Shown here: positions 13,088-41,052 of the stretch, in pieces
Layout: every line of letters starts with the position of its first letter
How positions within the stretch are numbered: position 1 is the first letter of the stretch
Origin: Muribaculaceae bacterium
Lineage (GTDB): Bacteria; Bacteroidota; Bacteroidia; Bacteroidales; Muribaculaceae
Length of the DNA stretch: 64,000 nt
NCBI GenBank assembly: GCA_023667015.1
Contig: JAMPAX010000002.1
Coordinates: 54,259-118,258, forward strand
Direction of reading: 5' to 3'
Position numbers and translations under genes: made by a program
Notes under the pieces: model-generated
Seen by the model: only the letters and a program-made list of their open reading frames with translations
Databases searched by the model: none
What the model was told of the DNA's origin: nothing

Positions 13088-13095
13088 CAAAATTA
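13088..13095 (-). promoter_or_regulatory. Candidate -7 box (TAATTTTGC on the minus strand) for the pilus operon; implies a leader of about 260 nt
   Basis: caaaatta on + strand is the reverse complement of TAATTTTG. Confidence 0.35.
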
Positions 13096-13172
13096 TAAAA
13101 AGGTTTTCTGATATGCAATTAAAAATTGAAAAATTTTTCTAATAGGTTCAAAAAAAATGCAGTTATTAAAGA

Positions 13173-13218
13173 CCTGGTTCAACATATAATGGAAAAAGAT
13201 ACTTGGTTCAACATATAA
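13173..13218. promoter_or_regulatory. Direct repeat TGGTTCAACATATAA x2 (29-bp spacing) in the divergent region between the pilus operon and the 13341 gene
   Basis: gacctggttcaacatataatgg ... acttggttcaacatataacaagg. Confidence 0.4.
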
Positions 13219-13242
13219 CAAGGAAAAGACAGCAGTCCAACG

Positions 13243-13250
13243 TAATTTTG
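13243..13250 (+). promoter_or_regulatory. -7 box TAATTTTG (extended TAATTTTGCA) for the 13341 gene
   Basis: acgTAATTTTGcag. Confidence 0.4.
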
Positions 13251-13340
13251 CAGTAAGATTGTAGAGATCCGGATTGAGACTGTTGCTCAATAAGCAAGGC
13301 CTACTTCATACTCATGACTAATACTTATAACTTAAATTAA

Positions 13341-13700
13341 ATGGATTGGGAAATGATGATACAACTATTGGGGGCTATAGGTGGCTTGGAGGCTATCAAG
13401 TGGCTAATGAATCGCAAGAATGCGAGCAGGATAGTTCGTGCTCAAGCAATGACGGAAGAGCAATCGGCACTTTCAGCGCGCGAGAAGCTTTACGAGGACA
13501 CCATCCTCTTTCTTCAGCAACAATTGAAAGAGAAGGAGGAGAGGTTTGCACAGCAGACTGAACTTCTAAGGCAATCTACGTCCTCAGAGTTGGAGCTGAC
13601 TCGCCAGTTGGGGCAGCTCGAGTTGCGACTGCAACGCTGTCGCTGCGACAAATTCAACTGTGCTGACCGCCAACCCCCATTAGCCCAAGACACTAAGTAG
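13341..13700 (+). CDS. Hypothetical small coiled-coil protein with Cys-rich C-terminus
   Basis: Coiled-coil heptads (LQQQLKEKEERFAQQTELLRQ); RCRCDKFNCADRQ tail; no recognised family. Confidence 0.3.
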   Translation: MDWEMMIQLLGAIGGLEAIKWLMNRKNASRIVRAQAMTEEQSALSAREKLYEDTILFLQQQLKEKEERFAQQTELLRQSTSSELELTRQLGQLELRLQRCRCDKFNCADRQPPLAQDTK

Positions 13701-13759
13701 TATAACCGGTCGGACCTGTCTGACTGGTCGGAGGGGTAGGAGGGTCTGATGGGGAAGCA

Positions 13760-13802
13760 AAAAGAGCGCATCCTTTTGAGAATGCGCTCTTTTTACTTTT
13801 TG
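13760..13802. terminator. Bidirectional hairpin terminator between the convergent 13341 gene and secDF
   Basis: aaaagagcgcat-ccttttgaga-atgcgctctttt followed by tacttttt. Confidence 0.65.
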
Positions 13803-13811
13803 GAATTTTAA

Positions 13812-16784
13812 TTATTTGAAGCGGCGGTTGCCTTCGAGTCTTACCTCTGTGCTGGCAGCAGCAGCGTTTTTCTTGCCTTCGCGCTTGATGATGCTGTAGG
13901 CGATGGGGGCTGCACAGAAGAGTGAGCAGAAAGTACCTACTACCACACCGAAGATCATTGCGAATGTGAACGAACGGATGGTGTCGCCACCGAGGAAGAA
14001 GATGCATAGGAGCACGAGCAGTGTTGACAGAGATGTCATGATTGTACGTCCCAAGGTAGTGTTGAGCGACTTATTGAAGGTCAAGTAGCGATCTTCCTTA
14101 GGATAAATCTTCATCATCTCACGAACACGGTCGAATACTACCACGGTGTCATTGATCTGATAACCGATAATAGTCAGCACAGCTGCGATAAACGACTGGT
14201 CAACCTCCATAGAGAAGGGAAGGAATCCCCAGCAAATGGAGTAGAAGCCGATAATCAGGAATGCTGTGAGGGCTACGGCGCATACCGCGCCTACAGAGAA
14301 GGCGATATTGCGGAAACGCAGAAGGATGTAGAGGAACATGCAGACTACGGCGATACCGACAGCCCAGTAAGCATCGCGGCGCATGTCATCGGCCACGGAG
14401 GGACCAACCTTCTGGATAGAGATAATACCATTGTCCTCATCAGCCACAGTGAAGTTCTCCTTAGCCATCACCTTACCGTTGACAGTAAGTTCAGGTTTCA
14501 GAGTTTCGTAGAGAATATCTGTGATTTCGTTCTCTACGCCCTCGCTTTCCTGAGAAATTTTATAATTGGTAGAGATACGAGCCTTAGTTAGGTCATCGAT
14601 AGAGATAACGCCTACAGAGACAGTCTTATCGTTGGCCTTAGTCTGAAGCACATCAGCCAAGCGAGCCTGAATATCCTGGGGGTTGACATCCTTTTCAAAC
14701 TTCACAACGTAGTTGCGACCACCGGAGAAGTCGATACCCTGATTCATGCCGCGAAGAGCGAGAGAAGCGATTGAGACAATGATCAGGATTACCCAGACTA
14801 CACCCGCTACCCTGCTCTTAGCGAGGAAGTTGATATTAGTATTCTGGAGCCATTTGCGAGACATTCCTGTTGAGAAGGTCATGTTGGCGCAACGACCATT
14901 CTTGGTGATAAGGTCGAAGGCAATACGGGTCAAGAATACAGCTGTAAAGAAGGAGCATACAAGACCGATGATAAGAGTAGTCGCGAAGCCCTTAATCGGA
15001 CCGGAACCAAAGATAAGGAGGATGATGCCGGTGATTACAGATGTAAGGTTAGAGTCAAAGATTGCGGAGAAGGCATTGGAATAACCATCGGAGATAGCCT
15101 GACGGAGTTTCTTGCCGGAGCGGAGTTCCTCCTTGGTACGTTCGAAGATAAGCACGTTGGCATCGACAGCCATACCGAGGGCGAGGACGATACCGGCAAT
15201 ACCGGAGAGGGTCAGCACAGCCTGGAGGGATGCGAGGATACCAATGGTGAAGTACAGGTTGAGCATCAAGCCTACGTTAGCCACAAGACCGGGAACGACG
15301 CCATAAATGCAGATCATGAAGATCATGAGCAATACGAGAGCCACGATGAAGGAGATGAATCCCTGCTGAACGGCCTCAGAACCAAGAGAGGGGCCGATAA
15401 CGTTGGTAGAGATAACCTCTACTTTAGCGTTCATCTTACCGGACTTCAGGACGTTGGCAAGGTCATTGGCCTCAGCATCGGTGAAGTTACCGGTAATTTC
15501 TGAATTACCGCCGGTAATCTCAGCATTTACGTTAGGATAGGAATATACGGCATTATCGAGAACGATAGCTATAGGTCGACCGATGTTGTTGCGGGTAAGG
15601 GTAGCCCATTCACGAGCACCGCGGTCGGACATGGTCATGTTGACGGTGTTGCCCTTGAAATTGTCGCGGTCGGTAGAAGCGCCTGTGACAGCATCACCCT
15701 CGAGAGCAGCCTCACCCTTAAGGGCAACGAGCTGCCAGTATGGGGTAGTCACGGGAGTGTCTTTATCACGCATCTTCGGCTGGCCCTTCTCGTCCATGAC
15801 GGGATATTCAGTAGCCTTTACTTCCCAGACAGCAGAGAAGTCGCTGGGGAGCATCTTCTTAGCAAGGGGAGAGGCGAGGATAGAGTCAACCATAGCCTTG
15901 TTTGAGGGCATAACCACACCGATAACAGGGCTTTCAGCGCCAACGGAACCTCCGAGGAGGGCCATCAGGTTGGTATGGTTGATAGTATCTTGAGCTGCAT
16001 AAGCCTGGGCGAAGGCTTGGAGGTCGTTGCCGATCTCCTTATATTTATATACTTCGAAGAATTCGAGGTTTGCGGAAGACTTCAGCAGGTCTGTCACACG
16101 TTCGGGCTCCTTAACGCCCGGGAGTTCGAGAAGAATCTGGCCTGTTTTGTCCTGGAGCTTCTGAATATTGGGAGAAACAACACCGAATTGGTCGATACGG
16201 GTACGGAAAATGTTGAAAGCCGCGTCAACCTGGCTGGACACTTGCTGTTCAAGAGCAGCAGTCACTTCTTGATTGGAAGAACCGGAATTGAGCTTACCGA
16301 GATGCTCACCCTCGCGAGTGAAGAGGCCGGCCATAGTGCCGGGCTGCATGTGGGAGGCAAACTTAGAGATAAAATTCTTGTCTGAACCCTTCACGCCCTC
16401 ATTCTCAGTCTGCTGGATAGCGCGATTGATCTGAGCGAGTTGTTGCTGGCCGGAGGCATACTGACGAAGGATGTCGGGTACGGAAATTTCGAGTACGACA
16501 TTCATACCGCCCTTGAGGTCAAGGCCGAGGCCCATTTCCATCTTGCGAGCCTGATTGAAGGTGTAGAGCCCCATCATTACTTTTTCCTTGTCGATGGAGT
16601 CGTTGAATTGTTTCAGACTTTGCTTGTAGAGGTCGTTGGTGACGTCTGTGGTCTTGGAGACTCTGGCGGCATACTCCTTGGCCTCTTTCTCATAGTGAGA
16701 AGTGATGAACGAGAAGGAAATATAAAAACCGCAAATCAGAATCAACAGGACTGCAATAGTACTGATAAACCCTTTGTTCTGCAT
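13812..16784 (-). CDS. secDF: Protein translocase subunit SecDF (fused SecD-SecF)
   Basis: 990 aa, N-terminal TM then large periplasmic domain then 12-TM core; the fused SecDF is typical of Bacteroidetes. Confidence 0.85.
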   Translation of the reverse strand: MQNKGFISTIAVLLILICGFYISFSFITSHYEKEAKEYAARVSKTTDVTNDLYKQSLKQFNDSIDKEKVMMGLYTFNQARKMEMGLGLDLKGGMNVVLEISVPDILRQYASGQQQLAQINRAIQQTENEGVKGSDKNFISKFASHMQPGTMAGLFTREGEHLGKLNSGSSNQEVTAALEQQVSSQVDAAFNIFRTRIDQFGVVSPNIQKLQDKTGQILLELPGVKEPERVTDLLKSSANLEFFEVYKYKEIGNDLQAFAQAYAAQDTINHTNLMALLGGSVGAESPVIGVVMPSNKAMVDSILASPLAKKMLPSDFSAVWEVKATEYPVMDEKGQPKMRDKDTPVTTPYWQLVALKGEAALEGDAVTGASTDRDNFKGNTVNMTMSDRGAREWATLTRNNIGRPIAIVLDNAVYSYPNVNAEITGGNSEITGNFTDAEANDLANVLKSGKMNAKVEVISTNVIGPSLGSEAVQQGFISFIVALVLLMIFMICIYGVVPGLVANVGLMLNLYFTIGILASLQAVLTLSGIAGIVLALGMAVDANVLIFERTKEELRSGKKLRQAISDGYSNAFSAIFDSNLTSVITGIILLIFGSGPIKGFATTLIIGLVCSFFTAVFLTRIAFDLITKNGRCANMTFSTGMSRKWLQNTNINFLAKSRVAGVVWVILIIVSIASLALRGMNQGIDFSGGRNYVVKFEKDVNPQDIQARLADVLQTKANDKTVSVGVISIDDLTKARISTNYKISQESEGVENEITDILYETLKPELTVNGKVMAKENFTVADEDNGIISIQKVGPSVADDMRRDAYWAVGIAVVCMFLYILLRFRNIAFSVGAVCAVALTAFLIIGFYSICWGFLPFSMEVDQSFIAAVLTIIGYQINDTVVVFDRVREMMKIYPKEDRYLTFNKSLNTTLGRTIMTSLSTLLVLLCIFFLGGDTIRSFTFAMIFGVVVGTFCSLFCAAPIAYSIIKREGKKNAAAASTEVRLEGNRRFK

Positions 16785-22045: not shown

Positions 22046-23044
22046 TTAGTAAGGCATCTGTTGGAGTGCGGGGTTCTGTTGAGCCTGAGGGCCTTCGAGG
22101 TAATCGAGGAATTTAACTCCGTTTTTAAGGATTTCAGCTTGCTTCTTCATGTCGTCGATTTGCTTCTGAGCTTCAGGATTAGCCTTAAGTTGAGCTGCAA
22201 TCTGAGGATCGTTGAGTTGCTTGAGCTGAGCGTCGAGCTGGGCATCGCTCTGACGAAGCGCCATAGAGATTTCCTCGAAAGAAACCATCTTAGCCTGAGT
22301 CTGGAAAGCAGCCACGGGCATATTCATGATAGTGCCTTCTCCGACTTCCTTGCACATTTCATCGATAAGCATGTCCTTGTACTGAGCGCGGAGCTCGGTG
22401 TTGGTCTTGTAGTAGTCATCGTTGGAACGAACGTAGAAGACTACGGCCTCAGCCACGAACAGAGCGATAACGATAGTCACCCACCAGCAGCCGATACATT
22501 TCAAGCGGGGAATCCAAGCTGTAGAATCCCAGCCGATAGATTGGAACATAGACCAGAAGCCATGGTTCATGTGGAACCAGAGAGCGCAGAAACCGATGAT
22601 GTAAACGATCGGAGTCCAAACCTGAGAGAAAGCCTCTTGGATGAAGAGTGTACCTGCGACAGCGGGGATTTCAGTTTCCCACCCCATCACTTCGACGAGC
22701 TGCATCTTGGCCCAGAATTGAATCATGTGGACCGCGAGGAAAGCGAGAATAACGATGCCGAGAACGAACATGTTCCGACTTGACCATTCCACATTTTTAG
22801 GCATCTTGCTGACCAGATAGCGTTCAGAGCCGCGAGCACGGCGATTTTGCACAGTCAGCATGATTGCGTAGATAATGTGGATAAGGATGAGAACGGCCAA
22901 ACCTGCCGAAGCCAGAAGGGCGTACCAATTGGCGCCGAGGAACATACAAACCTGGTTGTATGCTGCCGGCCAGCAGATTGCCACCGCGTTCATCAAACAG
23001 TGAAAAGTAACAAATAGGACGAGACATGCACCCGTAAGGGCCAT
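22046..23044 (-). CDS. frdC: Fumarate reductase cytochrome b subunit with an unusual C-terminal extension of about 100 aa (Gln/Ala-rich)
   Basis: Five TM helices with conserved His residues; start chosen at MALTGAC (ORF extends to 23197); C-terminal AQLDAQLKQLNDPQIAAQLKANPEAQKQIDD. Confidence 0.65.
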   Translation of the reverse strand: MALTGACLVLFVTFHCLMNAVAICWPAAYNQVCMFLGANWYALLASAGLAVLILIHIIYAIMLTVQNRRARGSERYLVSKMPKNVEWSSRNMFVLGIVILAFLAVHMIQFWAKMQLVEVMGWETEIPAVAGTLFIQEAFSQVWTPIVYIIGFCALWFHMNHGFWSMFQSIGWDSTAWIPRLKCIGCWWVTIVIALFVAEAVVFYVRSNDDYYKTNTELRAQYKDMLIDEMCKEVGEGTIMNMPVAAFQTQAKMVSFEEISMALRQSDAQLDAQLKQLNDPQIAAQLKANPEAQKQIDDMKKQAEILKNGVKFLDYLEGPQAQQNPALQQMPY

Positions 23045-23167
23045 TATGAACTTACGTCCTACAGAAGAGCTTGATAACCACATAGCAGTTCTTAGATTTA
23101 GGTATTGTTTATTATTGTTGTATTCAAAGAGAAGGAAGGAGCATAAGGGCGACCTCCCAATATCATG

Positions 23168-23175
23168 CAAAATTA
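23168..23175 (-). promoter_or_regulatory. Candidate frdCAB promoter -7 box (TAATTTTGCA on the minus strand)
   Basis: caaaatta on + strand is the reverse complement of TAATTTTG; about 120 bp upstream of the frdC start. Confidence 0.4.
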
Positions 23176-23300
23176 TGACAAAAACGGGTATGAGCAAAAT
23201 TTTTGGCCAATTGATTTTAACTTTTCTTATAAAAATTTAAATAAGGAGTAAAAAAGCACCCAAAAACAGGTTATAATTTGGTAAATTCAAAGATTCGTTG

Positions 23301-23308
23301 TACCTTTG
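23301..23308 (+). promoter_or_regulatory. -7 box TACCTTTG upstream of tRNA-Arg, with a TTTG about 20 bp further upstream (-33)
   Basis: TAnnTTTG match 13 bp upstream of the tRNA 5' end. Confidence 0.45.
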
Positions 23309-23320
23309 CGCCACAAATAG

Positions 23321-23394
23321 GGTCTGGTAGCTCAGCTGGATAGAGCAACAGCCTTCTAAGCTGTGGGTCCTGGGTTCGAATCCCAGCCGGATCA
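23321..23394 (+). tRNA. tRNA-Arg (anticodon UCU)
   Basis: tagctcagctggatagagca D arm; anticodon arm acagc-cttctaa-gctgt (TCT); T arm ctggg-ttcgaat-cccag; resembles E. coli argU-type tRNA. Confidence 0.8.
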
Positions 23395-23456
23395 CTAAAA
23401 CGTGTGAAGGTGAGAGAGAAATCTCCCGCCTTCGCTTGTTATAATCTCGTTATAAT

Positions 23457-23552
23457 TAAGTAGCTGTTCAATTTAAATTCCTTATTCGAGTGAAGAAACT
23501 GTCACAAAAATAACCGCGCATAAAGTTTAAATTTAAATCGACCATCTACTTA
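23457..23552. repeat. Palindromic element copy B: reverse complement of copy A with a 46-bp central insertion
   Basis: taagtagctgttcaatttaaatt-[46 bp]-ttaaatttaaatcgaccatctactta, 63 bp after tRNA-Arg. Confidence 0.8.
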
Positions 23553-23611
23553 AGACCTCCTTTCATAATAACTTTATGGTTCAAGGGACTGAGAGTCCGT
23601 CTATATAAAGC

Positions 23612-24532
23612 ATGAATGTCAGATTGATAACCCTGTTGTTGAGTTGTTTTTTTCTCAATACAGTTGTGGGGTTTGCGGAGAATATTTGTTTTAACAGTAC
23701 GCAATATAAAGAGGTCGAGTCTCTGCGCAAAGAGGGGTATGCTGAAAGTTTGGGATGGCACCCGGGGGATTCCTTAATTAACGTTCCGGCTTCGGTCAAG
23801 GTTATTCCGGCTTTTGCCTTTGCCGACATCTCTGAATTGCGGGTGGTTCGCTTCGATGATAATAGCCGGATTTCTTCTATTGGCAGCTATGCTTTTCTCG
23901 GATGTTCAAATATTGAGACTATCGCATTGCCATCTTCTTTAAAATCACTTGAGGAAGGGTGTTTTCGTGATTGTATATCTCTGAGTGAAATTACCATTCC
24001 CAATAGCATTACAAATATTCCGGCACAAGCATTCCGCGGATGCACCAAACTCCGGAAAGTACTTCTATCGCCAAACATAGTTAAAATCAGTGCATTTGCT
24101 TTTATATATTGTGAGTCTCTCGAAGAGATTTCCTTTCCTTCAAAGCTGCGCACTATTGGCAACAATGCCTTCAGTCGATGCCTGAGGCTGAAGGAGATAG
24201 TACTCCCCCCTACTTTGACGCATCTTGATTCATATGCTTTCTCAGACTGCATCAGTCTGCAGCGTGCTACTCTGCCGGGAAATTCTTCCCTTTTGGGAGA
24301 ATTGATTTTCAGTGGTTGCGCAAGTCTGGAGGAAATTACAGAACCCTCTGTGCGGGTGCCGAAATTTGACTGCAACAGTTATATCTTTGAGCCTACCGAC
24401 ACTGCTGCCTACCGTCGGTGCCAACTTATAGTTCCTGAAAGAAGCATTGATGCCTATCGGAAATCCCCGTCGTGGGGACTATTTGAGAATATCCTCTTTC
24501 CGGCACAGAAACCTCTACTAATCTATATGTAG
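23612..24532 (+). CDS. Leucine-rich repeat (BspA-type) domain protein
   Basis: Repeated about 23-aa units with the L..I.IP.SV..IG..AF..C..L pattern; signal peptide. Confidence 0.65.
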   Translation: MNVRLITLLLSCFFLNTVVGFAENICFNSTQYKEVESLRKEGYAESLGWHPGDSLINVPASVKVIPAFAFADISELRVVRFDDNSRISSIGSYAFLGCSNIETIALPSSLKSLEEGCFRDCISLSEITIPNSITNIPAQAFRGCTKLRKVLLSPNIVKISAFAFIYCESLEEISFPSKLRTIGNNAFSRCLRLKEIVLPPTLTHLDSYAFSDCISLQRATLPGNSSLLGELIFSGCASLEEITEPSVRVPKFDCNSYIFEPTDTAAYRRCQLIVPERSIDAYRKSPSWGLFENILFPAQKPLLIYM

Positions 24533-24931
24533 TGTTCTTATCCCTCTATCATCTACGGTTATGGATACGCGGACTGTATTCTCAGGGAGAAGGGGATCAA
24601 GATATTCGGGCCATTCTATCAAGCAAAGGTTGCCACTCTCAAGATAGTCTTCAGCACCCATATCGTGTGCTTCGGCTGTAGATTCGAGACGATAACAGTC
24701 AAAATGATATATCGACTCGCCATCGCCACCTACATATTCATTGACAATACTGAAAGTTGGAGAATTGACGTCATCCTCCACTCCCAGCAGGCGGCAAACA
24801 GCTGAGATAAAAGTGGTCTTACCGGCGCCCATCGGAGCTTCAAATGCAACGACTTTGCGGTTGTCCAGGGCTTTCAGAAATTCCCGGGCCGCTTCCTTCA
24901 GATTCTCTATATTTTTAATCTCTATAGTCAT
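24518..24931 (-). CDS. tsaE: tRNA threonylcarbamoyladenosine biosynthesis ATPase TsaE
   Basis: Walker A EAPMGAGKTTF; 137 aa with start at MTIEIKN (the upstream ORF extension covers a tandem repeat and is likely spurious). Confidence 0.75.
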   Translation of the reverse strand: MTIEIKNIENLKEAAREFLKALDNRKVVAFEAPMGAGKTTFISAVCRLLGVEDDVNSPTFSIVNEYVGGDGESIYHFDCYRLESTAEAHDMGAEDYLESGNLCLIEWPEYLDPLLPENTVRVSITVDDRGIRTLHID

Positions 24932-32315: not shown

Positions 32316-32328
32316 GAGTCTATTTCAT

Positions 32329-32360
32329 AAAAATGGGGTCGCCGGAGCGACCCCATTTTT
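32329..32360. terminator. Bidirectional hairpin terminator (14-bp stem) after GH31 and after the convergent 32369..33547 gene
   Basis: aaaaatggggtcgc-cgga-gcgaccccattttt. Confidence 0.75.
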
Positions 32361-32368
32361 ATGGAATG

Positions 32369-33547
32369 TTAACTGAGTTCCACGCGGAACTCGGGGTTGG
32401 ATGCCCCTCGGGGCTTGGGAAAGCTATAGCCAAAACATGCCTTGTAGCTCCCTTCCGGAATCTGAAGCCGGAGATGCTTCTCGCCCCCATCATGATAAAA
32501 CAATACCGGTCCCGATGACTGAGCTACCTCTGCCAAACGACTACTCGAAGTACGCGCGGACTCACGCCATGTAATCGAACCTTCAATCCTTGTTCCGGAA
32601 TAATGAGACTGCAGAATTTCCCCGTTTTCATCGTAGAAAACAGCTATTGCATGCGACTCATCATCCGGAGAGTCGATATTCGTAGTCACCTCCACAGATT
32701 CAAAAGCGGAGACTTTCACATGTCGACTTATTCCCATGTCAGTAGCCTTCGAGGTTGAGCCATCGGCATGCAGACAGCCGCCGGATTGACGGCGCGAACC
32801 GCTCATCAGACTGCCATCAACAGCTATCAGACGGGTACACACTTTGCAAGCCACCTCCCGATAGATAAACAAAGAGCAAGGGGCACCTTTAAGACTCACC
32901 ATCACCCGATCTCCCTTCTCCGATGTATACCTATAACTTCTCGCACCTGCAGACAGATCCATACCTATTAACGGGAAATCCCACCATCCATCCGGTTGGT
33001 CTGTTGCTTCAAGTACTATCGGCATAGAAAGGCCTCCGGTGTCACCCACACATATAATCGTTTCACCCGGAAGCAATTCAATCCATTGTGAACGGCAAAA
33101 ACCTGCTGCCTGACTCCCGGCTACGAGCTTATTAGCTTGAGAGACACACTCATCTTCATTCCATTCAAACGAGGGAAAACGGAGATTAGCAACTGATGCC
33201 AAAGCCCCTATCAAAGACTCGTCAGTGGCCGTCAGACGGGCCGTCTCCTCCTGTAACAAAGAATTCAATTTAGATTCAATAACGGAGAGATCCGGAGCTA
33301 CAGGTTGCTGCACAGAAATTGAAGGCCCCGACCCACCCGTAGCACGCCAAGTACCCTCAGCGGCAACATACACCTTAGCAGGCAACGACTCGCCAACCAG
33401 AGCAGCCCAGCCGGGCAGAGGTCGGGGAAAAGCCTCCATCAAAGCCCCGACAGAAGGGAACAGACCCTTCAGAAAACCGCGAATATTAGGTGCGTCAAGC
33501 CAACCCTCCACGCGGAGATTTCCGGAAATAACATTTTCATTCACCAT
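32369..33547 (-). CDS. Hypothetical protein (392 aa), left end of the phage-like island
   Basis: No recognised motifs; Gly/Ser-rich beta-like composition. Confidence 0.3.
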   Translation of the reverse strand: MVNENVISGNLRVEGWLDAPNIRGFLKGLFPSVGALMEAFPRPLPGWAALVGESLPAKVYVAAEGTWRATGGSGPSISVQQPVAPDLSVIESKLNSLLQEETARLTATDESLIGALASVANLRFPSFEWNEDECVSQANKLVAGSQAAGFCRSQWIELLPGETIICVGDTGGLSMPIVLEATDQPDGWWDFPLIGMDLSAGARSYRYTSEKGDRVMVSLKGAPCSLFIYREVACKVCTRLIAVDGSLMSGSRRQSGGCLHADGSTSKATDMGISRHVKVSAFESVEVTTNIDSPDDESHAIAVFYDENGEILQSHYSGTRIEGSITWRESARTSSSRLAEVAQSSGPVLFYHDGGEKHLRLQIPEGSYKACFGYSFPKPRGASNPEFRVELS

Positions 33548-33570
33548 AATATTAATTAATTAGATAAGAC

Positions 33571-33608
33571 TAAGCAGCTATTCAATTTAAATTCAAACAT
33601 TCTGCTTA
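33571..33608. repeat. Palindromic element copy C (TAAGCAG..ATTTAAATT..CTGCTTA variant)
   Basis: taagcagctattcaatttaaattcaaacattctgctta, 24 bp upstream of the 33547 start. Confidence 0.6.
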
Positions 33609-33631
33609 AACGATATAGATGATCCTGAGAG

Positions 33632-34018
33632 TTAGGCGCGAGAGAGGATTGTACGGATACTACCCGGGGTCAGATAGAACGAAGGAGCCGGAGAATTGAC
33701 GATATCGAATATCAGATCGTAGTCCGAATCCACCTTATTAATACCGCGAACACTGACGAAACGCCGCCAGATCTCCTCATACATACTCAGACGTGAACCC
33801 ACCAAGATGGGGAACTCACCGGTACGCTGGCGATGACGTATGACCGTAAGCGCACGCGATTCATTGACAAAAAAGCGCGGTGCCGGTTGCACGGCCATAG
33901 CCGCAAAAATAGCCTTTGCAGAGCGAAGACGAGTGTCTGCCAACATCTTCCTGTAGACCTTCCGGAGCTGACGATTACGCTCCTCAGAGAAGTCACAAAC
34001 ATTACCTTTCTTTTTCAT
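33632..34018 (-). CDS. Hypothetical small basic protein (possible regulator), divergent from the packaging operon
   Basis: 128 aa, Arg/Lys-rich; no confident family. Confidence 0.3.
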   Translation of the reverse strand: MKKKGNVCDFSEERNRQLRKVYRKMLADTRLRSAKAIFAAMAVQPAPRFFVNESRALTVIRHRQRTGEFPILVGSRLSMYEEIWRRFVSVRGINKVDSDYDLIFDIVNSPAPSFYLTPGSIRTILSRA

Positions 34019-34105
34019 AATCTGTTTTGCTTATTTTATGTTTTGCATTGCAAATTTATGAATAAATTATGCAACGGATATGATAAACGTTGATAAATCT
34101 TGATA

Positions 34106-34113
34106 TAATTTTG
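34106..34113 (+). promoter_or_regulatory. -7 box TAATTTTG (TAATTTTGCA) driving the capsid/packaging operon
   Basis: tgatataattttgcagag about 20 bp upstream of the 34133 ATG. Confidence 0.45.
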
Positions 34114-34132
34114 CAGAGTCAAACAAAAACAA

Positions 34133-34882
34133 TTGATAATGAAAAAAGAAAAGGAAGAAAAAAAAGGAGATGTAGCCGGATTAGAATCTGGCAAGACACA
34201 GGAGTCGGTAATTGAATTTGCGAATCAAGAGACCGAATCAAGTGCTGAGTCGAAGGAAGAGCCGGAGGCTGAAGCAGTGACTCAAGCTGAGACCGCAGTA
34301 GAGACAGGGCCGGAGACTGAGGCAGAGGTAAAGACAACGGAAGAGACAGAGTCGGAAACAGAGTCGGAAACAGAGTCGGAAACAGAGTCGGAGGTTAAAT
34401 CGGAGGTTGAGACTGATGAGAATGTTGAAGATAAAGCAGACATATTAGCAGTATGGAGAAATCTCGAGGAAAAGACTGATGCTCTGGAGCAACTTCGAGC
34501 GTTTGCAGAGTATCAGAGCGATACAGCCTTGAAAGTCAAAGACTCCCTCACGCGTATTGATGGTTTCCGCAATGGGTCGCACGAACCAGACAGTAGGATA
34601 TCGATGGCAGTGGGACAATTGCTGGACATTGCGACAAACGCTGCCAATGGAATCATAGATCCTGAGGCTATAGCAATGATACTGCGGGCCAATGACTTCG
34701 ATGAAGCAATAGAGCGTGCCCATAATGAGGGTGAGATCTGTGGTAGAAATGCTTTAATCCGGGAGAAGTTTTTCAGTCCCAAGAGCAACGTAGAGAGTGT
34801 ACCGGCACTTGGAGGAACTTCAGCATCTGCCGACACACGCCGACCGGGAAGCATCTTCGACCTTGCCAGCTTCGCCCGATAG
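34133..34882 (+). CDS. Acidic repeat protein, candidate capsid scaffolding protein
   Basis: Glu/Thr-rich N-terminal half with (TESE)4 encoded by a 12-bp tandem DNA repeat at about 34356-34395; helical C-terminal half; immediately precedes the capsid-like gene. Confidence 0.35.
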   Translation: MIMKKEKEEKKGDVAGLESGKTQESVIEFANQETESSAESKEEPEAEAVTQAETAVETGPETEAEVKTTEETESETESETESETESEVKSEVETDENVEDKADILAVWRNLEEKTDALEQLRAFAEYQSDTALKVKDSLTRIDGFRNGSHEPDSRISMAVGQLLDIATNAANGIIDPEAIAMILRANDFDEAIERAHNEGEICGRNALIREKFFSPKSNVESVPALGGTSASADTRRPGSIFDLASFAR

Positions 34883-34947
34883 ACAATCTCAATCTACAAA
34901 GTAATAGACAAATAATACGATAAACCAATAATCTAAAAAACTAAATT

Positions 34948-36405
34948 ATGAACAAGACCATTCATGGCGGTCAGTCCGCCACCGTCACCAACACAGCGAT
35001 GCTGACAGGAGGGATAGCTCCCGGCAACTTCCTTGAGACCGGTATCGATGAAGAGCTCTTTCGATTTAACTCCGACGACACTCCTCTAATGAACCTCATG
35101 CTCAAGGCCAAACGAGTGAAAGTCGACTCTCCGGAAGTAGACCACTATATGATCGATGAGCCGACATATCAGAGTGTCACCACGAAGAACTTTACCGGCT
35201 CAATTCAGGGAGCACTTCCTGTAGACCCTCGTGATGCTACCATTATTCGTCCCTATTCTACATTGCTGATCAAAGGTGTGGATGGTTACGACGATGATGG
35301 CAAGGAGAAAACTCCGGGAAGAGATCTTATGCTGTTTGTGGTGAGTCATGACAATTTATCGGGGATGCCGGTAGTGAAAGCTGTCAATGGCAGGAAAAAC
35401 AATCCTTCCGATGAATCCGGCTACATCCCTGAAATTCCGGCAGGCACGAAGGTAATCATCCTTGCCAACTCGCTCTACGAGACACAGAAGGAGGTAGAGC
35501 CGGACCTGATAGTTCCCCAGCCAACGCGTGTATTCCTTCAGAAAAGAGGTATGAACCAAGTAGTGTCAGACTACTTCGATGCACAGCGCAAGCGTATTCC
35601 CTTCAGCAAAGCAATCCTTGCTGAGCAGGCAATTGCCAACTTCAAAGTACGCGGTAATCGTACACTATGGGCAGGAAGAAAGGGATGTTTCAAGCTTCCG
35701 GTAGACAAAATGGGCATGCAGACCGTCTATACCACGGAAGGCCTTCGCTGGCAATTCAAACGAGAGTTGCAACATACCGGCAAATGGACTGTAGAGCAAG
35801 TAATAGCACTAGCCAAAATGTTCTTCACAGGTGAAGACGTGCCCAAATCGGCTCTGTTGTTGGCAGGAAAGAACATGCTTGAGCAAATTCAATGTATAGA
35901 TTTCTCGAAGCATCCTGAGATTCAAATCTCCACAAAGACCAACAAACTGGGTTGGACCGTCACCAACTTCCATACCGTATTTGGCGATATTGAAATCAAG
36001 CGTGAGCCCACACTCGACCGCCTTGGTTGGAGCAATTCCGGAGCGTTGATAGGTGAAGACCGACTGGTTCACTATGTATATTCTGCCGAGCACTCTTTCT
36101 CCGACAGAGTAGAAGGACAGGAAGCCACTCGCAACGGCATTCTTATCTGGGACGCCTTGGCACTCAAAGGCAGCTGCCATATATGGATTGACGGCGAAAA
36201 TGACGGCAATTGCACACCTGAGCTGAGCTATCTGATGTGGGATAAAGCTGAGGCACCCGAGCCTGTGGAGGGTGGGGCATCTCGATTCTATCTTCTCAGC
36301 GACTGTCCCGGAATTTCAGAGAGCGCCAAAGCCGGTCAGGTCTGGGAATATATCAAGGAGGATGGAACATCTTCAGGAACGTGGGTACCACAGGTTTTGA
36401 TATGA
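34948..36405 (+). CDS. Putative major capsid protein (485 aa)
   Basis: Assigned by context (after scaffold-like gene, before terminase/portal) and size; not verifiable by motif from memory. Confidence 0.4.
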   Translation: MNKTIHGGQSATVTNTAMLTGGIAPGNFLETGIDEELFRFNSDDTPLMNLMLKAKRVKVDSPEVDHYMIDEPTYQSVTTKNFTGSIQGALPVDPRDATIIRPYSTLLIKGVDGYDDDGKEKTPGRDLMLFVVSHDNLSGMPVVKAVNGRKNNPSDESGYIPEIPAGTKVIILANSLYETQKEVEPDLIVPQPTRVFLQKRGMNQVVSDYFDAQRKRIPFSKAILAEQAIANFKVRGNRTLWAGRKGCFKLPVDKMGMQTVYTTEGLRWQFKRELQHTGKWTVEQVIALAKMFFTGEDVPKSALLLAGKNMLEQIQCIDFSKHPEIQISTKTNKLGWTVTNFHTVFGDIEIKREPTLDRLGWSNSGALIGEDRLVHYVYSAEHSFSDRVEGQEATRNGILIWDALALKGSCHIWIDGENDGNCTPELSYLMWDKAEAPEPVEGGASRFYLLSDCPGISESAKAGQVWEYIKEDGTSSGTWVPQVLI

Positions 36406-36415
36406 TTCCGGAGTT

Positions 36416-36452
36416 AAAGATTAGATATTAGATTTATATATAGATATTAGAT
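36416..36452. repeat. Short tandem repeat GATATTAGA units
   Basis: gattagatattagatttatatatagatattagatc. Confidence 0.7.
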
Positions 36453-36453
36453 C

Positions 36454-36750
36454 ATGACAACTAAAACTTATGGGGTATATGGGATGCTTGAATGGCATGC
36501 ATTGATACCGGCGGGGAGGATGACACTTAGTCTGGTGTTCACCGACGGGAAGGTATCAGGCTACGGAGTCATACCGGCACGTTACCAGACGTCCGACCCC
36601 GTCATACAATCCGCCATTGAGGCCTCCGGCCACTTCAGAAACGGAAAAATCCGACTGCTAAATACAGAGAATATGAATAGAAGACCAATAGAGAATCGAT
36701 CCACAGCGAAAACAAGCAATGATATATCGACAAGAAACAGTACTCGCTGA
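36454..36750 (+). CDS. Hypothetical small protein (98 aa) within the packaging operon
   Basis: ORF only; overlaps the next gene. Confidence 0.3.
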   Translation: MTTKTYGVYGMLEWHALIPAGRMTLSLVFTDGKVSGYGVIPARYQTSDPVIQSAIEASGHFRNGKIRLLNTENMNRRPIENRSTAKTSNDISTRNSTR

Positions 36751-37342
36751 CGTCACGGCAGCTCTGGGGGAAACTCCGGAGTTGCCCATGATTCTGAATC
36801 CCAAGGAGTTGCCATCATTGACAATAAATACGTTGATAATGCCAATTTTACCGGAAGTAGCGGCTGAGGTGATGAGAAATGAGCCAATTCAAGAGATGGA
36901 AGACTGCATTATACCTCTGAGAGGGACCGTGGAAACTCGCGGAGCTAACTCAGGGATAATAACATTGCCCTCAGATTATCTAAGGCTTGTATGCTTCAAG
37001 ATGTCCGGATGGTCCGGGTCATTGACTAATATAGAGCCTACTACGACATTACGGGCACAACTCAGCTGGCGCATCCCTGAAGAGCTTCACAGGATGTGCA
37101 CCCCGGAAGATCCCTTTTTATTGTTAAGCTCCGGAATAGAGGGTATGCAACTTGAATATTACGGCATAAGAAGAGAGGGTTGCTCAGAAATAGAAGCGAC
37201 ATATATAGCCAAGCCGACTTGGAATCATGGATTTACGGAAACAAGTATATCGCTACCCAAGAGGCTATATCGAAAAATCATAGAAGAGACGGCCAAGAAA
37301 ATAAGAGAAAATGACAGAGAAAACTATACAGGATATACTTGA
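36719..37342 (+). CDS. Hypothetical protein, possible small terminase subunit by position
   Basis: 207 aa; 32-bp overlap with the TerL start (translational coupling); no HTH recognised. Confidence 0.3.
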   Translation: MIYRQETVLADVTAALGETPELPMILNPKELPSLTINTLIMPILPEVAAEVMRNEPIQEMEDCIIPLRGTVETRGANSGIITLPSDYLRLVCFKMSGWSGSLTNIEPTTTLRAQLSWRIPEELHRMCTPEDPFLLLSSGIEGMQLEYYGIRREGCSEIEATYIAKPTWNHGFTETSISLPKRLYRKIIEETAKKIRENDRENYTGYT

Positions 37343-39407
37343 TGAGAACAAAAGAAGAAATGAAGAAATCAGACGGGAATATAATCCTCTTTTCGGGGTT
37401 GGAGCTCTTGGAGAACGCTTCCCACTTCTTCTAAAGCCGGGAGGGAAAGAATTGCATCTTCCCATAGAAATGGCCGATTTCATCGTAGTATCGGAATCAT
37501 TAAGGGCCGGCTCGGTCAGCGAATATATTGCTGAACTCACAGAGAAATGTCCTTGGAAAAAGCCCGATGAAATACGCACTCAGATATTGGGGAATATTCT
37601 CTATCATTGGGGCCATTGTGACTTTGAATTCTGGGCTGCAAGCTATGTACGGATAAAGAACAAGGGGGGAGGAGCAGATGTTAACTTCGTGCTCAACAGG
37701 CCACAACGACGACTAGTCGAGCGATTTGAGAGGATGCGTCATAGAAATCAGCCAATACGATTGATACTCTTGAAAGCCCGACAATGGGGAGGGTCGACGT
37801 GCACTCAACTTTATATGGCATGGTTGCAACTATGCCGACAGGAAGGACTCAACTCGTTAATAATTGCTCATCAGGGGATAGGGTCTGATGAAATACGCGA
37901 TATGTTCACACGTATGATTCAGGCTTATCCGCTCCGCATGCTTTACCCGCCGGGAAAGATACGGCGAGGAGCCAAGAAAATAGTCAGAGTAGGGAGAGCC
38001 GGAGGAATCTCAAGAGTGCCGCAGCGAAATTGTAAAATCAAGATAGGGACTGCTGAGCGGCCTGACTCTTGTCGTGGAGGGGACTATAATCTTGTACATT
38101 TATCGGAAATAGGAATATGGAAAGCGACAGACGGGAAGAAACCTGAAGATATCGTACGTTCTGCCTGTTCGGGCATTCTATTGAAGCCACTGACCATGAT
38201 AGTCATGGAATCTACGGCAAATGGCGTTGGCAACTACTTTCATCGGGAATATCTTGCAGCAAAGGATTCTACCAGTCAATTTGAGCCAATGTTTGTAAGC
38301 TGGTATGAGATTGACCAATACTCACAGGCATTCAATGATGAAGAAGAGCGTAGAGCAATGGCCGAAAAACTCTTTGAGAATCGGCAAGACACACGCGAGA
38401 GCAGTCGCCGGGTTTCGGGAGCATATCTATGGAGACTATGGGAATTGGGAGCTACGCTGGAGGCTATCAACTGGTATGTCGGAGAGAGAAAGAAATACTC
38501 TGATCAGGGACAGATGGCCGCAGAATATCCCACGGACGATCTTGAGGCCTTTGCGCATTCCGGAAGGATGGTGTTTGCGCGCGAATCGGTAGAGAAACTT
38601 CGCGAAGAATGTCGTGAGTCGAACGTATGCGGAATTTTGGAAACTCCGATGGAATCGGGACTTCCGGTGTTATCGAGGATAGAATTTGTAAGGGAAGCGG
38701 GGGGAGCATTGCAGATTTGGGAAATGCCGCAGGCTGAAGAGACAGAGCGTTTCTCCGACAGATATTTGGCCGTCATGGATATCGGAGGGAGGTCAGCCCG
38801 GGCAGATTGGACAGTCATCAGTGTATTCGACAGACGAAGAATGGCAGATGGGGGAAGGCCGGAGATCGTAGCGCAATGGCGGGGACACGGAGATATGGAT
38901 ATTGTAGCCATGGAGGCAGCCAAGTTAGCAGCCTTCTATAATGAGGCATTATTAGTCGTAGAGAGCAACACCGCTGAGACTCGCTTTCCGACATCACTGT
39001 TTGATGCCGACAATATGCCCTATGTAATGGCTCAACTCAGGCAGGTATATACCAATTTGTACGTCAGGCGCCAGTCGCCGGAAGATATCCGCGAAGGGCG
39101 GCCGGCGAAATATGGCTTCCATACGAATGTATCGACCAAGCCATTGGTCATTGCAGAATTAGTCAGAGCCGTACGCGAAGGGCTTTATATAGAGCGCGAC
39201 GTGCGAGCTCTGGAAGAGATGCTACAGTATGAACAGCGTCCCAATGGCAGTTATGGAGCTATTGCAGGATGCCACGACGACATCTTGATGACTCGAGCCA
39301 TAGGACTTTACATCTGTTTCCACGAAATGGAAACGCCGCGAAGAATCCTTCCCCGAAATTATCGGAACGGATATTCGGGCTATTTATCAGAAGCTTTTAT
39401 GAGCTAG
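37311..39407 (+). CDS. Terminase large subunit (TerL)
   Basis: Walker A-like KARQWGGST, Walker B-like IVMEST, RNase-H-like nuclease motifs VMDIGGRSARADWTV, VESNTAE and CHDDILMT. Confidence 0.7.
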   Translation: MTEKTIQDILDENKRRNEEIRREYNPLFGVGALGERFPLLLKPGGKELHLPIEMADFIVVSESLRAGSVSEYIAELTEKCPWKKPDEIRTQILGNILYHWGHCDFEFWAASYVRIKNKGGGADVNFVLNRPQRRLVERFERMRHRNQPIRLILLKARQWGGSTCTQLYMAWLQLCRQEGLNSLIIAHQGIGSDEIRDMFTRMIQAYPLRMLYPPGKIRRGAKKIVRVGRAGGISRVPQRNCKIKIGTAERPDSCRGGDYNLVHLSEIGIWKATDGKKPEDIVRSACSGILLKPLTMIVMESTANGVGNYFHREYLAAKDSTSQFEPMFVSWYEIDQYSQAFNDEEERRAMAEKLFENRQDTRESSRRVSGAYLWRLWELGATLEAINWYVGERKKYSDQGQMAAEYPTDDLEAFAHSGRMVFARESVEKLREECRESNVCGILETPMESGLPVLSRIEFVREAGGALQIWEMPQAEETERFSDRYLAVMDIGGRSARADWTVISVFDRRRMADGGRPEIVAQWRGHGDMDIVAMEAAKLAAFYNEALLVVESNTAETRFPTSLFDADNMPYVMAQLRQVYTNLYVRRQSPEDIREGRPAKYGFHTNVSTKPLVIAELVRAVREGLYIERDVRALEEMLQYEQRPNGSYGAIAGCHDDILMTRAIGLYICFHEMETPRRILPRNYRNGYSGYLSEAFMS

Positions 39408-39409
39408 AA

Positions 39410-39485
39410 AAGAATAAGGAGCTTAAGGAATTCAAGGTGCTTAAGAAACCTAAGGAATTTAAGGATAGATTTAAAAAAATTTAAA
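39410..39485. repeat. Degenerate repeat of CTTAAGGAATT-like units between TerL and portal
   Basis: aataaggagcttaaggaattcaaggtgcttaagaaacctaaggaatttaaggat. Confidence 0.6.
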
Positions 39486-39487
39486 AG

Positions 39488-41008
39488 ATGAAAGAAACAG
39501 AAGGATTTGGAGAGCATCGGGAGGATCTGCTACGCTTGGCGCAGGCTCATTGGAATGCCATGGCCGGCTTCCGCCTGGACCGTGAACGCTGTAAGCGCTA
39601 CACGTATGGGCGGCAGTGGGAAGACACAATACAGGTTGAAGGGCGCACGATGCGCGAGGCGGACTATATTCGCCGGCAGGGTAACATACCCTTGAAAAAC
39701 AATCTCATCCGACGAATTGTCAGGAACGTATTAGGGGTTTTTCGCAATCAGTTTGTTCCCCCGTCGGTTACAGACCTGGACCTGCCGGACACTCCGGAGA
39801 CTCAGCGTACGTTAGAGAGACTCAACGTAGCTGCTCGGCGCAACATGCTTGAGGAACTTTATGCCCGCACGATGGAAGAGTTTCTCATCTCCGGGCTTGC
39901 TGTCCATCGCAAATGGGTGGGGGAGCGTCGGGGACGCTATGATGTCTGGACAGACTATGTTCAGCCCGACTATTTTATCATTGACACTGATATGCGCGAC
40001 TTCCGGGGATGGGATGCGACACTTGCCGGAGAGATCCACGATGTAGACTTTACTGAGCTATGCACACGCATAGCCCAAAGTCCGGCACAAATGAAACGAC
40101 TACGAGAGATATATCTCGAAAGTGAAGACAATGGACTGAGAGAACTCTCCGAGAGCTTTGGTAATCCTGCTTCGGCTCTTAACTTTCTACAACCTACCCA
40201 TCCGGGACGATGTAGAGTCATCGAAATATGGCGCAGAGAACCGCGGGGTTATTATCATTGCCACGACACTCGCGATGGTTCCCTTTTCCGCATTCGGGAG
40301 AATGAATATACTAAATGTGTGGAGGAGGAAAACTCGAGGAGGCTGAAAAGAGCTGTAGATGAAGGGCGAACAGAGAGGGAGGCTCGACTTATACGCTACA
40401 AGTGGGTGATGGAAGAATGCTGGCGATATTACTTCTTATCGCCCCTGGGAGATGTGCTTTGCTCCGGAGACTCACCATTTCCGGATGGATCCCATCCTTA
40501 CGTTTTCAAGGCCTACCCCTTTATCGACGGAGAAATCCACTCCTTCGTCAGCGACTTGATCGACCAGCAAAGATACGTCAATCGTCTGGTGACACTCTAC
40601 GACTGGGTCATGCGAGCCTCAGCCAAGGGAGTGTTACTCTTTCCGGAGGGATCACTCCCGGATGGAATAGACATCGACGATATCTCGAGCGAGTGGAGTC
40701 GTTTCAATGGTGTCATAATGTTCCGACCCAAGCCGGGCGTTCCTTTGCCGCAACAAATCAGCGGAAACGCAGCCAACATCGGCATTACTGAGCTTCTGCA
40801 GGTGCAGCTGAAGATGATGGAAGATGTCAGCGGTGTGAACGGTGCACTCCAAGGGAAACTCGAAAGTGGAGCCGTCAGCGGCACGCTCTACAATCAGCAG
40901 ACGCGACATGCACTGACCGGGCTACTCGACATCCTTCAGAGCTTCGGAAGCTTTATCCGCGAAGGAGTGAGGAAGGAAATCAATATCTTGCAAGATGAAA
41001 TCTTGTAA
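39488..41008 (+). CDS. Phage portal protein
   Basis: 506 aa directly after TerL; YTYGRQWED N-terminal region resembles portal family proteins. Confidence 0.55.
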   Translation: MKETEGFGEHREDLLRLAQAHWNAMAGFRLDRERCKRYTYGRQWEDTIQVEGRTMREADYIRRQGNIPLKNNLIRRIVRNVLGVFRNQFVPPSVTDLDLPDTPETQRTLERLNVAARRNMLEELYARTMEEFLISGLAVHRKWVGERRGRYDVWTDYVQPDYFIIDTDMRDFRGWDATLAGEIHDVDFTELCTRIAQSPAQMKRLREIYLESEDNGLRELSESFGNPASALNFLQPTHPGRCRVIEIWRREPRGYYHCHDTRDGSLFRIRENEYTKCVEEENSRRLKRAVDEGRTEREARLIRYKWVMEECWRYYFLSPLGDVLCSGDSPFPDGSHPYVFKAYPFIDGEIHSFVSDLIDQQRYVNRLVTLYDWVMRASAKGVLLFPEGSLPDGIDIDDISSEWSRFNGVIMFRPKPGVPLPQQISGNAANIGITELLQVQLKMMEDVSGVNGALQGKLESGAVSGTLYNQQTRHALTGLLDILQSFGSFIREGVRKEINILQDEIL

Positions 41009-41052
41009 GATATTGAGGGTTGAGGGTTGGGGGTTGTTGAGGGTTGAGGGTT
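41003..41052. repeat. Heptamer microsatellite (GAGGGTT) x about 6; G-quadruplex-capable on the + strand
   Basis: ttgagggttgagggttgggggttgttgagggttgagggtt. Confidence 0.9.

Follow-up and report, generated by a model that had tools for sequence, protein, structure and literature searches.

A phage-derived head-and-packaging island in Muribaculaceae chromosomes, possibly a gene transfer agent-like module without a recognisable tail

Gene content of the island

The subject of this analysis is a stretch of 64,000 nucleotides from a Muribaculaceae bacterium (assembly GCA_023667015.1, contig JAMPAX010000002.1, positions 54,259 to 118,258), hereafter the window, and more specifically the island of phage head and DNA-packaging genes located at its positions 32,369 to 41,052. 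An earlier note, made from the sequence alone, had described seven genes at this location. All the open reading frames (ORFs) that it described lie where it had placed them, but the count is eight, all of them intact. As it also reported, the two small genes at the left edge are divergent from the rest, orfA and orfB both pointing left and the other six right. The island comprises the following features, where MCP is the major capsid protein and TerL the large terminase:

32369-33547, minus strand: orfA, 392 aa, fibre-like protein (ORF list)
33632-34018, minus strand: orfB, 128 aa, terminase-associated by position (ORF list, phrog_27246)
34019-34132: divergent intergenic region of 114 bp, with putative promoters in both directions
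34133/34139-34882, plus strand: scaffold-like acidic protein (ORF list, phrog_22323)
34948-36405, plus strand: MCP, 485 aa, SU10-type (PF17236)
36454-36750, plus strand: head-associated 98-aa gene (homology to the N-terminal domain of a phage protein)
36719-37342, plus strand: 207-aa gene, p207 (phrog_22135)
37311-39407, plus strand: TerL, 698 aa (PHROG_2, catalytic motifs)
39488-41008, plus strand: P22-type portal, 506 aa (Pfam P22_portal, PHROG portal)

Pfam and PHROGs searches found no integrase, replication, tail or lysis gene among the eight island proteins, bearing out the claim that the island encodes head assembly and packaging only, with no integrase, replication or tail functions. 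The roles given here to the scaffold-like, 98-aa, 207-aa, orfA and orfB proteins come from their position and from weak structure matches.

The 485-aa protein had been called capsid-like, and this assignment holds. It matches the SU10_MCP family (PF17236) with E=1.4e-6, above the curated cut-off, and 37 of 40 members of its own family also do so (best E=1.5e-29), making it an SU10-type MCP of the HK97-fold family according to Pfam. An AlphaFold2 model built from 41 close homologues was poor (pLDDT 53) and left the core unresolved, so that its Foldseek matches, which were to ribosomal proteins, were discarded as meaningless. Only two parts of this model are confident, the C-terminal domain (residues 430-485) and an insertion domain rich in beta structure (71-170). 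The latter has a weak, non-significant Foldseek match (E=0.26) to the I-domain of the CUS-3 (P22-like) coat protein.

The gene encoding the scaffold-like protein is always located immediately upstream of the MCP. Its product measures 249 aa if translated from a TTG, although the 247-aa form starting at the ATG at 34139 is likelier. The (TESE)4 repeat previously pointed out in this protein is real, as it is encoded by a perfect tandem array (12 nt x 3.9, 34346-34392), and the extreme C-terminus (..SIFDLASFAR) is kept in both the islands and the phages described below.

TerL matches PHROG_2 with E=1e-16. Its Walker A motif KARQWGGST (K155-T163) and the nuclease residues D490, G492, G493, D499, E551, N553, H655, D656 and D657 are invariant across 25 island and phage homologues, which confirms the identification of a large terminase from its KARQWGGST, D..GG, E.N and HDD motifs. 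Similarly, the 506-aa protein proposed to be portal-like is a P22-type portal by three kinds of profile match: to Pfam P22_portal (PF16510, E=2e-26, profile positions 5-441 of 594, covering clip, stem and wing), to the PHROG portal family (E=3e-56) and, using a profile of its own family against the PDB, to the solved portal 8jov (E=1e-13).

Relationship to BS-TP4-like phages

A megablast search of the island against 50,697 phage records returned no match, and similarity to phages is only found at the protein level. The portal and TerL are 52% and 55% identical, respectively, to the proteins of BS-TP4 (PQ571277), BKO1-TP3 (PQ571269) and BF1-TP2 (PQ571263), which are temperate phages of Bacteroides with genomes of 64-68 kb (Gut Microbes 2025, PMC12694917). 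These BS-TP4-like phages measure about 60-68 kb and encode giant proteins of 2,600-5,400 aa. In BS-TP4, the giant gp3 (5,391 aa) and the portal are followed on the opposite strand by TerL, gp8 and an orfB homologue, and then by the scaffold, the MCP, gp12, gp13 and the 2,645-aa gp14, the target of a diversity-generating retroelement (DGR). The layout of the lineage can be summarised as giant-portal / TerL(-) orfB(-) <-> scaffold-MCP-98-aa-type gene-p207-giant A. The same layout is present in IMG/VR contigs of 40-67 kb, whose MCPs are 54-67% identical to that of the window. Therefore, given the homologous genes and the layout of these phages and contigs, the island corresponds to the head-and-packaging part of the BS-TP4-like lineage.

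The gene order in the window had been explained as a rotation of a circular element opened between portal and scaffold. This explanation fails, because in the phages and in most sister islands TerL(-) and orfB(-) are divergent from scaffold-MCP, and changes of orientation cannot come from rotation; circular permutation is therefore rejected. The order of the window recurs only in L005, L025 and L050 (L-numbers denote related loci fetched for comparison) and needs at least one inversion.

The comparison with these phages is also informative about the small proteins. The 98-aa protein is homologous to the N-terminal domain of a phage protein of 170-250 aa whose C-terminal domain is gone in the islands, and the family accordingly has a median length of 89 aa in islands versus 189 aa in phages. 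The 207-aa gene follows the MCP and 98-aa pair in both phages and islands and belongs to a PHROG with no function annotated (phrog_22135). As a query for homologues, the 207-aa protein retrieved only itself, and its family profile had no meaningful match among PDB sequences; by position only, it is a candidate head-completion or adaptor protein. The earlier suggestion that it might be the small terminase finds no support. In the parental phages and in most islands, the gene located directly upstream of TerL is orfB, which is a candidate small terminase or regulator, again by position only; its family profile had no match to solved structures (PDB sequences).

Residues ~10-75 of orfA (LRVEGWLDAPNIRG..KGLF..YP.P..GW.ALVG) form a conserved anchor domain that is common with the N-terminus of the ~2,700-aa giant protein of the phages, the DGR target gp14 in BS-TP4, whose N-terminus matches orfA residues 7-154. 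This anchor is followed by a long helix (residues 87-120) and then by C-terminal beta-sandwiches. The description of the island as tail-less thus stands as regards tail genes, of which there are none, but orfA is fibre-like and has its anchor domain in common with the giant receptor-binding protein of the phages, and the element is therefore not strictly appendage-free.

The clearest difference between islands and phages lies in the portal. A C-terminal part of ~125 aa is present in 38/38 related phage portals and absent from 24/24 island portals, and a ~30-aa N-terminal extension of all 38 phage portals is likewise absent from the island portals, which thus lack the full-length P22-type architecture with its C-terminal domain. 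The island portals all end at the same point (median 485 aa, range 385-517) and do not overlap in length with the phage portals (median 653 aa, 632-706). The short form represents ~45 of the best 150 portal clusters at 50% identity in a library of 1.8 billion proteins. As this domain was lost alongside the giant proteins, it may have served them.

Sister islands across Muribaculaceae

To define the distribution of the island, peptide words from the window MCP were used to scan one genome per species, which gave 159 matches, of which the best 80 were kept. These best 80 all come from Muribaculaceae, each from a different species-representative genome, and each is a small island, with none in a full prophage and no giant gene nearby. 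Their core consists of the scaffold, the MCP, a small protein and a ~200-aa protein. Close relatives of the MCP (~70% identity) number more than 1,800 in the protein collection, and many lie on contigs of 0.1-1 Mb. No other gene of the island is as conserved: the MCP has 67-74% identity to the best 80 of the 159 species matches, and the mean identities among islands are 71.5% for the MCP, 60% for TerL and 52% for the portal. In the phages, this order of conservation is reversed, the portal (68%) and TerL (67%) being above the MCP (61%).

The placement of the packaging genes relative to this core is variable. TerL, orfB and the portal can be found to the left of the core and in opposite orientation (e.g., L006, L010, L046 and L076), to its right as in the window (L005, L025 and L050), or several kb away beyond host genes (L022, L027, L034, L075 and L084), with dnaX separating TerL from the MCP in L022 and L027. 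At least 20 of 84 genome loci show the four-gene MCP core only, within the sequence available. The neighbours of the islands in these relatives are the housekeeping genes sufB, murF-alr, rimP-nusA-infB, dnaX, obg and pckA. A scan of metagenomes with the portal mostly retrieved full human-gut phages, but five of 80 loci were informative, each with a solitary short portal. In L181, this gene (9950-11581) lies between gyrB/PNGase-like/fabF and sigma-54 activator/lptE/nadK/pdxJ, with no capsid or terminase gene within 10 kb. Such solitary short portals among housekeeping genes indicate that the parts of the module are dispersed in some genomes.

Lysis and regulatory genes accompany many of the sister islands. 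A 70-aa holin-like membrane gene and a 132-aa Amidase_2 endolysin (PF01510, E=1e-16) follow the ~200-aa gene in L061 (7040-7658), L015, L064, L074, L079 and others, some islands having only one of the two. Other islands end with a repressor on the opposite strand, combining a helix-turn-helix (HTH) with Peptidase_S24 (LexA/CI-like), followed by three tandem paralogues of ~150-200 aa (phrog_19255/35482). This arrangement is found in L062 of Lepagella muris (12315-14634) and in L067, L072, L073, L078, L082-L086 and L088, and the paralogue triplets are also present in the full phages L091, L092 and L111, with two copies in L099.

Three of these loci, L085, L086 and L088, are IMG/VR contigs of 8-11 kb that show the island arrangement with short portals and no phage genome; except for the shortest, they carry the CI-like repressor and its paralogues. 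Virome pipelines call such islands viral, and counts of prophages and viruses can be inflated as a result.

Origin, inheritance and selection

Phylogenies were reconstructed by neighbour-joining only. The MCPs of the islands are monophyletic and nested within those of the phages in 93 of 100 bootstraps, and the island portals likewise, in all 60 replicates (60/60). The islands also occupy the same chromosomal site in several genera. A left flank made of saccharopine dehydrogenase and GH31 is common to the window, L018, L021, L062 and L069, and L021 also has the right-hand SusC of the window, although the internal order of the island differs among these five loci despite the common flank.

MCP divergence tracks that of the flanking host genes (rho 0.68, p=1e-13 for the DHQS-like gene; rho 0.86 for Obg), and the identity of the MCPs (70-78%) falls between that of PEPCK, IF2 and NusA (85-90%) and that of GH31 (61%). 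These values are consistent with a mainly vertical inheritance of the island, the comparison being with individual host genes. The dN/dS ratios in the closer pairs are 0.02-0.15 for the MCP, 0.04-0.15 for TerL, 0.05-0.14 for the truncated portal and 0.06-0.26 for orfB, and they are higher yet below 1 for the scaffold (0.16-0.35) and p207 (0.13-0.49). Together, these comparative results argue against a currently mobile element, as far as sequence comparison can indicate.

Borders and genomic context

The island is surrounded by ordinary chromosomal genes, as previously stated and now confirmed by Pfam annotation: to its left lie a lysyl-PG synthase-like gene, saccharopine dehydrogenase and GH31, and to its right a LuxR-type regulator, SusC and SusD. 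No integrase was found in the annotated flanks (Pfam on the flanks of the window and on the conserved neighbours of selected relatives, the rest by eye), and a repeat search around the island gave no convincing flanking direct or att-like repeats. The base composition of the island shows no notable shift. Its borders and spacers contain the following hairpins and repeats:

32322-32367: left boundary hairpin separating the stop codons of GH31 and orfA, with 21-nt arms that are 95% complementary
36420-36452: tandem repeat ATTAGAT x 5, in the spacer between the MCP and the 98-aa gene
39415-39465: tandem repeat of a 9-nt unit, TAAGGAACT x 5.7, in the spacer between TerL and the portal
40980-41016: right boundary hairpin, which overlaps the stop codon of the portal and has 17-nt arms
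41013-41052: G-rich tandem repeat (TTGAGGG)x5, directly 3' of the portal stop and hairpin

The left hairpin is probably a bidirectional terminator. The (TTGAGGG)n repeat of the right edge has no copy in the 131 related loci fetched, and G-quadruplex formation by its five units (41013-41052) is possible.

The -7 promoter consensus of Bacteroidota is TAnnTTTG, and two motifs within the 114-bp divergent spacer fit it: TAATTTTG at 34106(+) and its mirror TAAATTTG at 34051-34058(-). The host-type motif reported at 34106 is thus present, and its promoter role is putative, an 8-mer being too short alone for significance; across the window, the -7-type 8-mer is not enriched (41 found vs 30.6 +/- 5.7 expected).

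Two other isolated genes of the window belong to phage families. An isolated Amidase_3 endolysin-like gene of 197 aa at 1885-2478(+) (PF01520, E=4e-21; phrog_435, E=9e-38), located 30 kb from the island, is 54% identical to the BS-TP4 endolysin gp21; it adjoins a tRNA-Pro (1557-1630) and has TAATTTTG just upstream, at 1869. This gene may be either a lysis gene of the system that became dispersed or a host amidase with no relation to it. An orphan gene of 119 aa at 13341-13700(+) combines an N-terminal transmembrane segment with a coiled coil (phrog_32423, E=1e-9). It shares 44% identity with a gene located beside the endolysins in the island L011 and the phage L093, and is possibly a lysis accessory gene stranded among host genes.

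An Rfam scan of the window returned two tRNAs and nothing else. A stretch with 39% GC at 23001-24600, beside a tRNA-Arg (23321-23395) and carrying a BspA-type leucine-rich-repeat protein (23612-24532), seems to be a small insertion of its own, with no relation to the island.

Interpretation and alternatives

The interpretation that we prefer, and to which we give about an even chance, is that the island is a lineage-specific arrangement of an anciently domesticated head-and-packaging module that many species of Muribaculaceae carry, similar to gene transfer agents (GTAs) and without a recognisable tail. A domesticated GTA-like packaging module was one of the two possibilities raised in the earlier note, and it fits the monophyly, the common site, the purifying selection and the dispersal among housekeeping genes.

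According to the comparison with the phages and sister islands, the module goes back to a ~60-kb temperate phage of Bacteroidales, similar to BS-TP4, that became fixed in the chromosome. It lost the giant proteins (likely involved in ejection and receptor binding), the replication and integration functions, and the C-terminal domains of the portal and of the ancestor of the 98-aa protein, while the remaining head genes have been inherited mainly vertically, with local shuffling and under purifying selection. At present, the divergent host-type promoters (34051-34113) would express orfB and orfA in the leftward direction and the operon from scaffold to portal in the rightward one. The scaffold, the MCP and the shortened portal would assemble into procapsids, to be filled with DNA by TerL, possibly with orfB as the small subunit. 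The absence of replication and excision functions suggests that the packaged DNA would most likely be chromosomal. The 98-aa and 207-aa proteins may decorate or close the head, and orfA may form a short trimeric fibre that is attached by the conserved anchor at its N-terminus. Release would depend on lysis genes, such as the holin and Amidase_2 found beside the module in relatives, which are possibly located elsewhere in this genome, and the LexA/CI-type S24 repressor beside the module in many relatives suggests an SOS-type control. Extended to the whole family, the proposal becomes that Muribaculaceae possess a host-controlled system making DNA-filled phage heads without tails, which we advance only tentatively.

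Several observations weigh against this interpretation. The function of the island is deduced throughout from homology and conservation. Neither the window nor the island loci contained a homologue of the phage giant proteins or of any tail family and, with no tail, ejection or injection genes in these sequences, the delivery step of a GTA is missing. The window has no lysis or repressor gene next to the island, and the loss of the portal C-terminus could mean an impaired rather than an adapted function. Many MCP loci have neither TerL nor a portal within 10 kb, and some lineages may have lost packaging. The monophyly of the island TerL was recovered in only 30 of 60 bootstraps. In addition, dS is near saturation in most pairs, and comfortably unsaturated only in L006/L009 and L077/L081 (the latter with dN/dS of 0.05 for the MCP and 0.17 for p207). 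Finally, the 80 loci were picked by their similarity to the window MCP, and the tree consequently samples only the nearest clade.

Among the alternatives, the best supported, which we nevertheless consider doubtful, is that of an immobilised capsid-forming satellite producing its own DNA-filled heads, which would become infectious only when the giant proteins for tail and ejection come from a BS-TP4-like helper, either co-infecting or resident. Docking would involve the 207-aa protein and the portal as the interface, and packaging in situ would transduce the element together with the neighbouring chromosome, as in lateral transduction. Its gene content matches the morphogenetic half of the phage-inducible chromosomal islands of the capsid-forming type (cf-PICIs), with TerL, portal, capsid, a candidate adaptor and no tail; full phages of the lineage exist, with MCPs about 54-67% and portals ~50% identical, and orfA retains the anchor domain of the phage receptor-binding protein. 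Nevertheless, neither the window nor the related loci examined contain an integrase, an AlpA-type regulator or a primase-replicase, the chromosomal site is conserved, and the parts are dispersed among housekeeping genes. Many relatives carry a holin and an endolysin, which cf-PICIs by definition lack. The portal is devoid of a domain that every helper-type phage has kept, arguing against a preserved compatibility, and no Muribaculaceae helper phage was identified in this analysis.

An anti-phage defence role is unlikely, in our view. According to this hypothesis, the head proteins would act as decoys, forming dead-end capsids with an incoming BS-TP4-like phage, and the terminase would divert or cut the phage DNA, comparable to the sabotage of helper capsid assembly by PICIs and PICI-like elements (PLEs). 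The loss of the portal domain in all islands is what would be expected of a dominant-negative subunit, the constraint differs between the two groups (strongest on the MCP in islands, and on the portal and TerL in phages), and related phages are common in gut Bacteroidales. However, defence genes are usually patchy and subject to fast turnover, whereas here the site is conserved, the genes diverge with their host and the dN/dS of the MCP is 0.02-0.15. Invariant ATPase and nuclease motifs in TerL and linked lysis genes fit particle production better.

It is quite improbable that the core forms a DNA-free shell, either an encapsulin-like compartment or a secreted particle, of which TerL and the portal would be slowly decaying leftovers. 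The loci restricted to the four-gene MCP core (at least 20/84), in which this core is still under purifying selection, and the MCP being by far the most conserved component would agree with it. In contrast, TerL and the short portal have dN/dS values of 0.04-0.15 with invariant catalytic residues, no cargo-type gene is consistently linked to the islands, and the solitary short portals, intact among housekeeping genes, indicate that absence within 10 kb is not genome-wide absence. An encapsulin reading was thus rejected as the main explanation, TerL and the portal being under selection.

Finally, an ordinary, functionless prophage remnant, in line with the descent from a temperate phage lineage and with the loss of most of its genome, part of the portal included, is very improbable and was discarded given the monophyly, the common site, the dN/dS well below 1, the invariant catalytic motifs, the eight intact ORFs and the same gene subset in the 80 species examined, because independent decay would not leave an identical set of intact genes.

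Implications

Muribaculaceae rank with the most abundant gut bacteria of mice and are also common in humans, and their gene exchange is poorly known. A conserved module of this kind would extend the biology of domesticated viruses (GTAs, tailocins and encapsulins) to Bacteroidota. If the proposal for the whole family is true, the system would represent the first viriform of GTA-like type in this phylum, and also the first "head-only" viriform. The consequence would be either a novel way of delivering DNA, by fibre-mediated binding and uptake or with borrowed tails, or a new host use of packaged capsids. The parallel loss of the portal C-terminus and the giant proteins also offers a natural experiment on a phage head without a tail.

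Muribaculaceae DNA makes up ~19% of the "transductome" of mouse virus-like particles (VLPs), in which Duncaniella contigs have a uniform coverage whose mechanism is not known (bioRxiv 10.64898/2026.07.08.737213). A selected capsid-terminase-portal module would be a concrete candidate source of the unexplained bacterial DNA in gut VLPs and, if the proposal for the whole family holds, could explain this uniform Muribaculaceae signal. These mouse data are circumstantial, being compatible with the model without constituting evidence for it.

Comparison with known systems

The earlier note considered such an element uncharacterised in Bacteroidales. In agreement, we found no such module described in the searchable literature, outside which most subscription journals lie, for Bacteroidales, Muribaculaceae included.

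With the BS-TP4-like phages, the island has in common homologous orfB, TerL, portal, scaffold, MCP, 98-aa-type and 207-aa-type genes and, in most islands, the divergent orfB/TerL <-> scaffold/MCP layout. In contrast to the island, these phages carry giant proteins, a DGR, an endolysin and toxin-antitoxin genes, and the island differs in its fixed chromosomal location and in the missing C-terminal domains of the portal and the 98-aa protein.

The encapsulins, HK97-fold shells that are either domesticated or of cellular origin, are a similar case of a shell protein of the HK97 family that the host keeps outside any virus life cycle. However, they lack a portal, a terminase and a scaffold and contain cargo enzymes, whereas the island keeps TerL and the portal and has no linked cargo gene.

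The cf-PICIs (Alqurainy et al., 2023) also encode their own capsid, TerL, portal and possibly connectors, and no tail. Their components have been defined in SatelliteFinder, and they have been reported in Proteobacteria and Firmicutes only (NAR 2023, PMC10085698). The island has the capsid, TerL and portal of this definition, the connector role of the 207-aa protein being positional only. In contrast to cf-PICIs, it has no integrase or att repeats, no AlpA/MerR/Stl regulator and no primase-replicase, and it occupies a conserved site. Regarding the tail and holin genes that the definition forbids, the window has neither, but many sister islands have a holin-like gene and Amidase_2. Therefore, the cf-PICI-like satellite proposed in the earlier note is not supported, as the integrase, regulator and primase-replicase are absent from the window and the related loci examined, the site is conserved, and relatives possess a holin and an endolysin.

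The GTAs or viriforms (RcGTA, BaGTA and FpGTA) share more features with the island: phage-derived structural and packaging genes without replication or integration functions, an inheritance consistent with vertical descent over many species of a family, purifying selection, parts distributed over several loci, lysis genes either linked or separate, and a suggested repressor/SOS-type control. Among the defining features of GTAs, the island thus has resident phage-derived genes and the signatures of vertical inheritance and purifying selection, and no tail or delivery apparatus in the window or the island loci. In contrast, the known GTAs are tailed, and their particles have been demonstrated and carry random host DNA. 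The lineage of the island is unrelated to theirs (SU10-type MCP, P22-type portal and Bacteroidota host). A gut GTA is known in Faecalibacterium (FpGTA; Nat Commun 2026, PMC12946183), and GTA-like packaging in the gut was mainly reported in Ruminococcaceae, Oscillospiraceae and Christensenellaceae (PMC12946183). The island therefore belongs by lineage with the BS-TP4-like phages, is closest to the GTAs and viriforms by its organisation, and resembles the cf-PICIs in gene content only.

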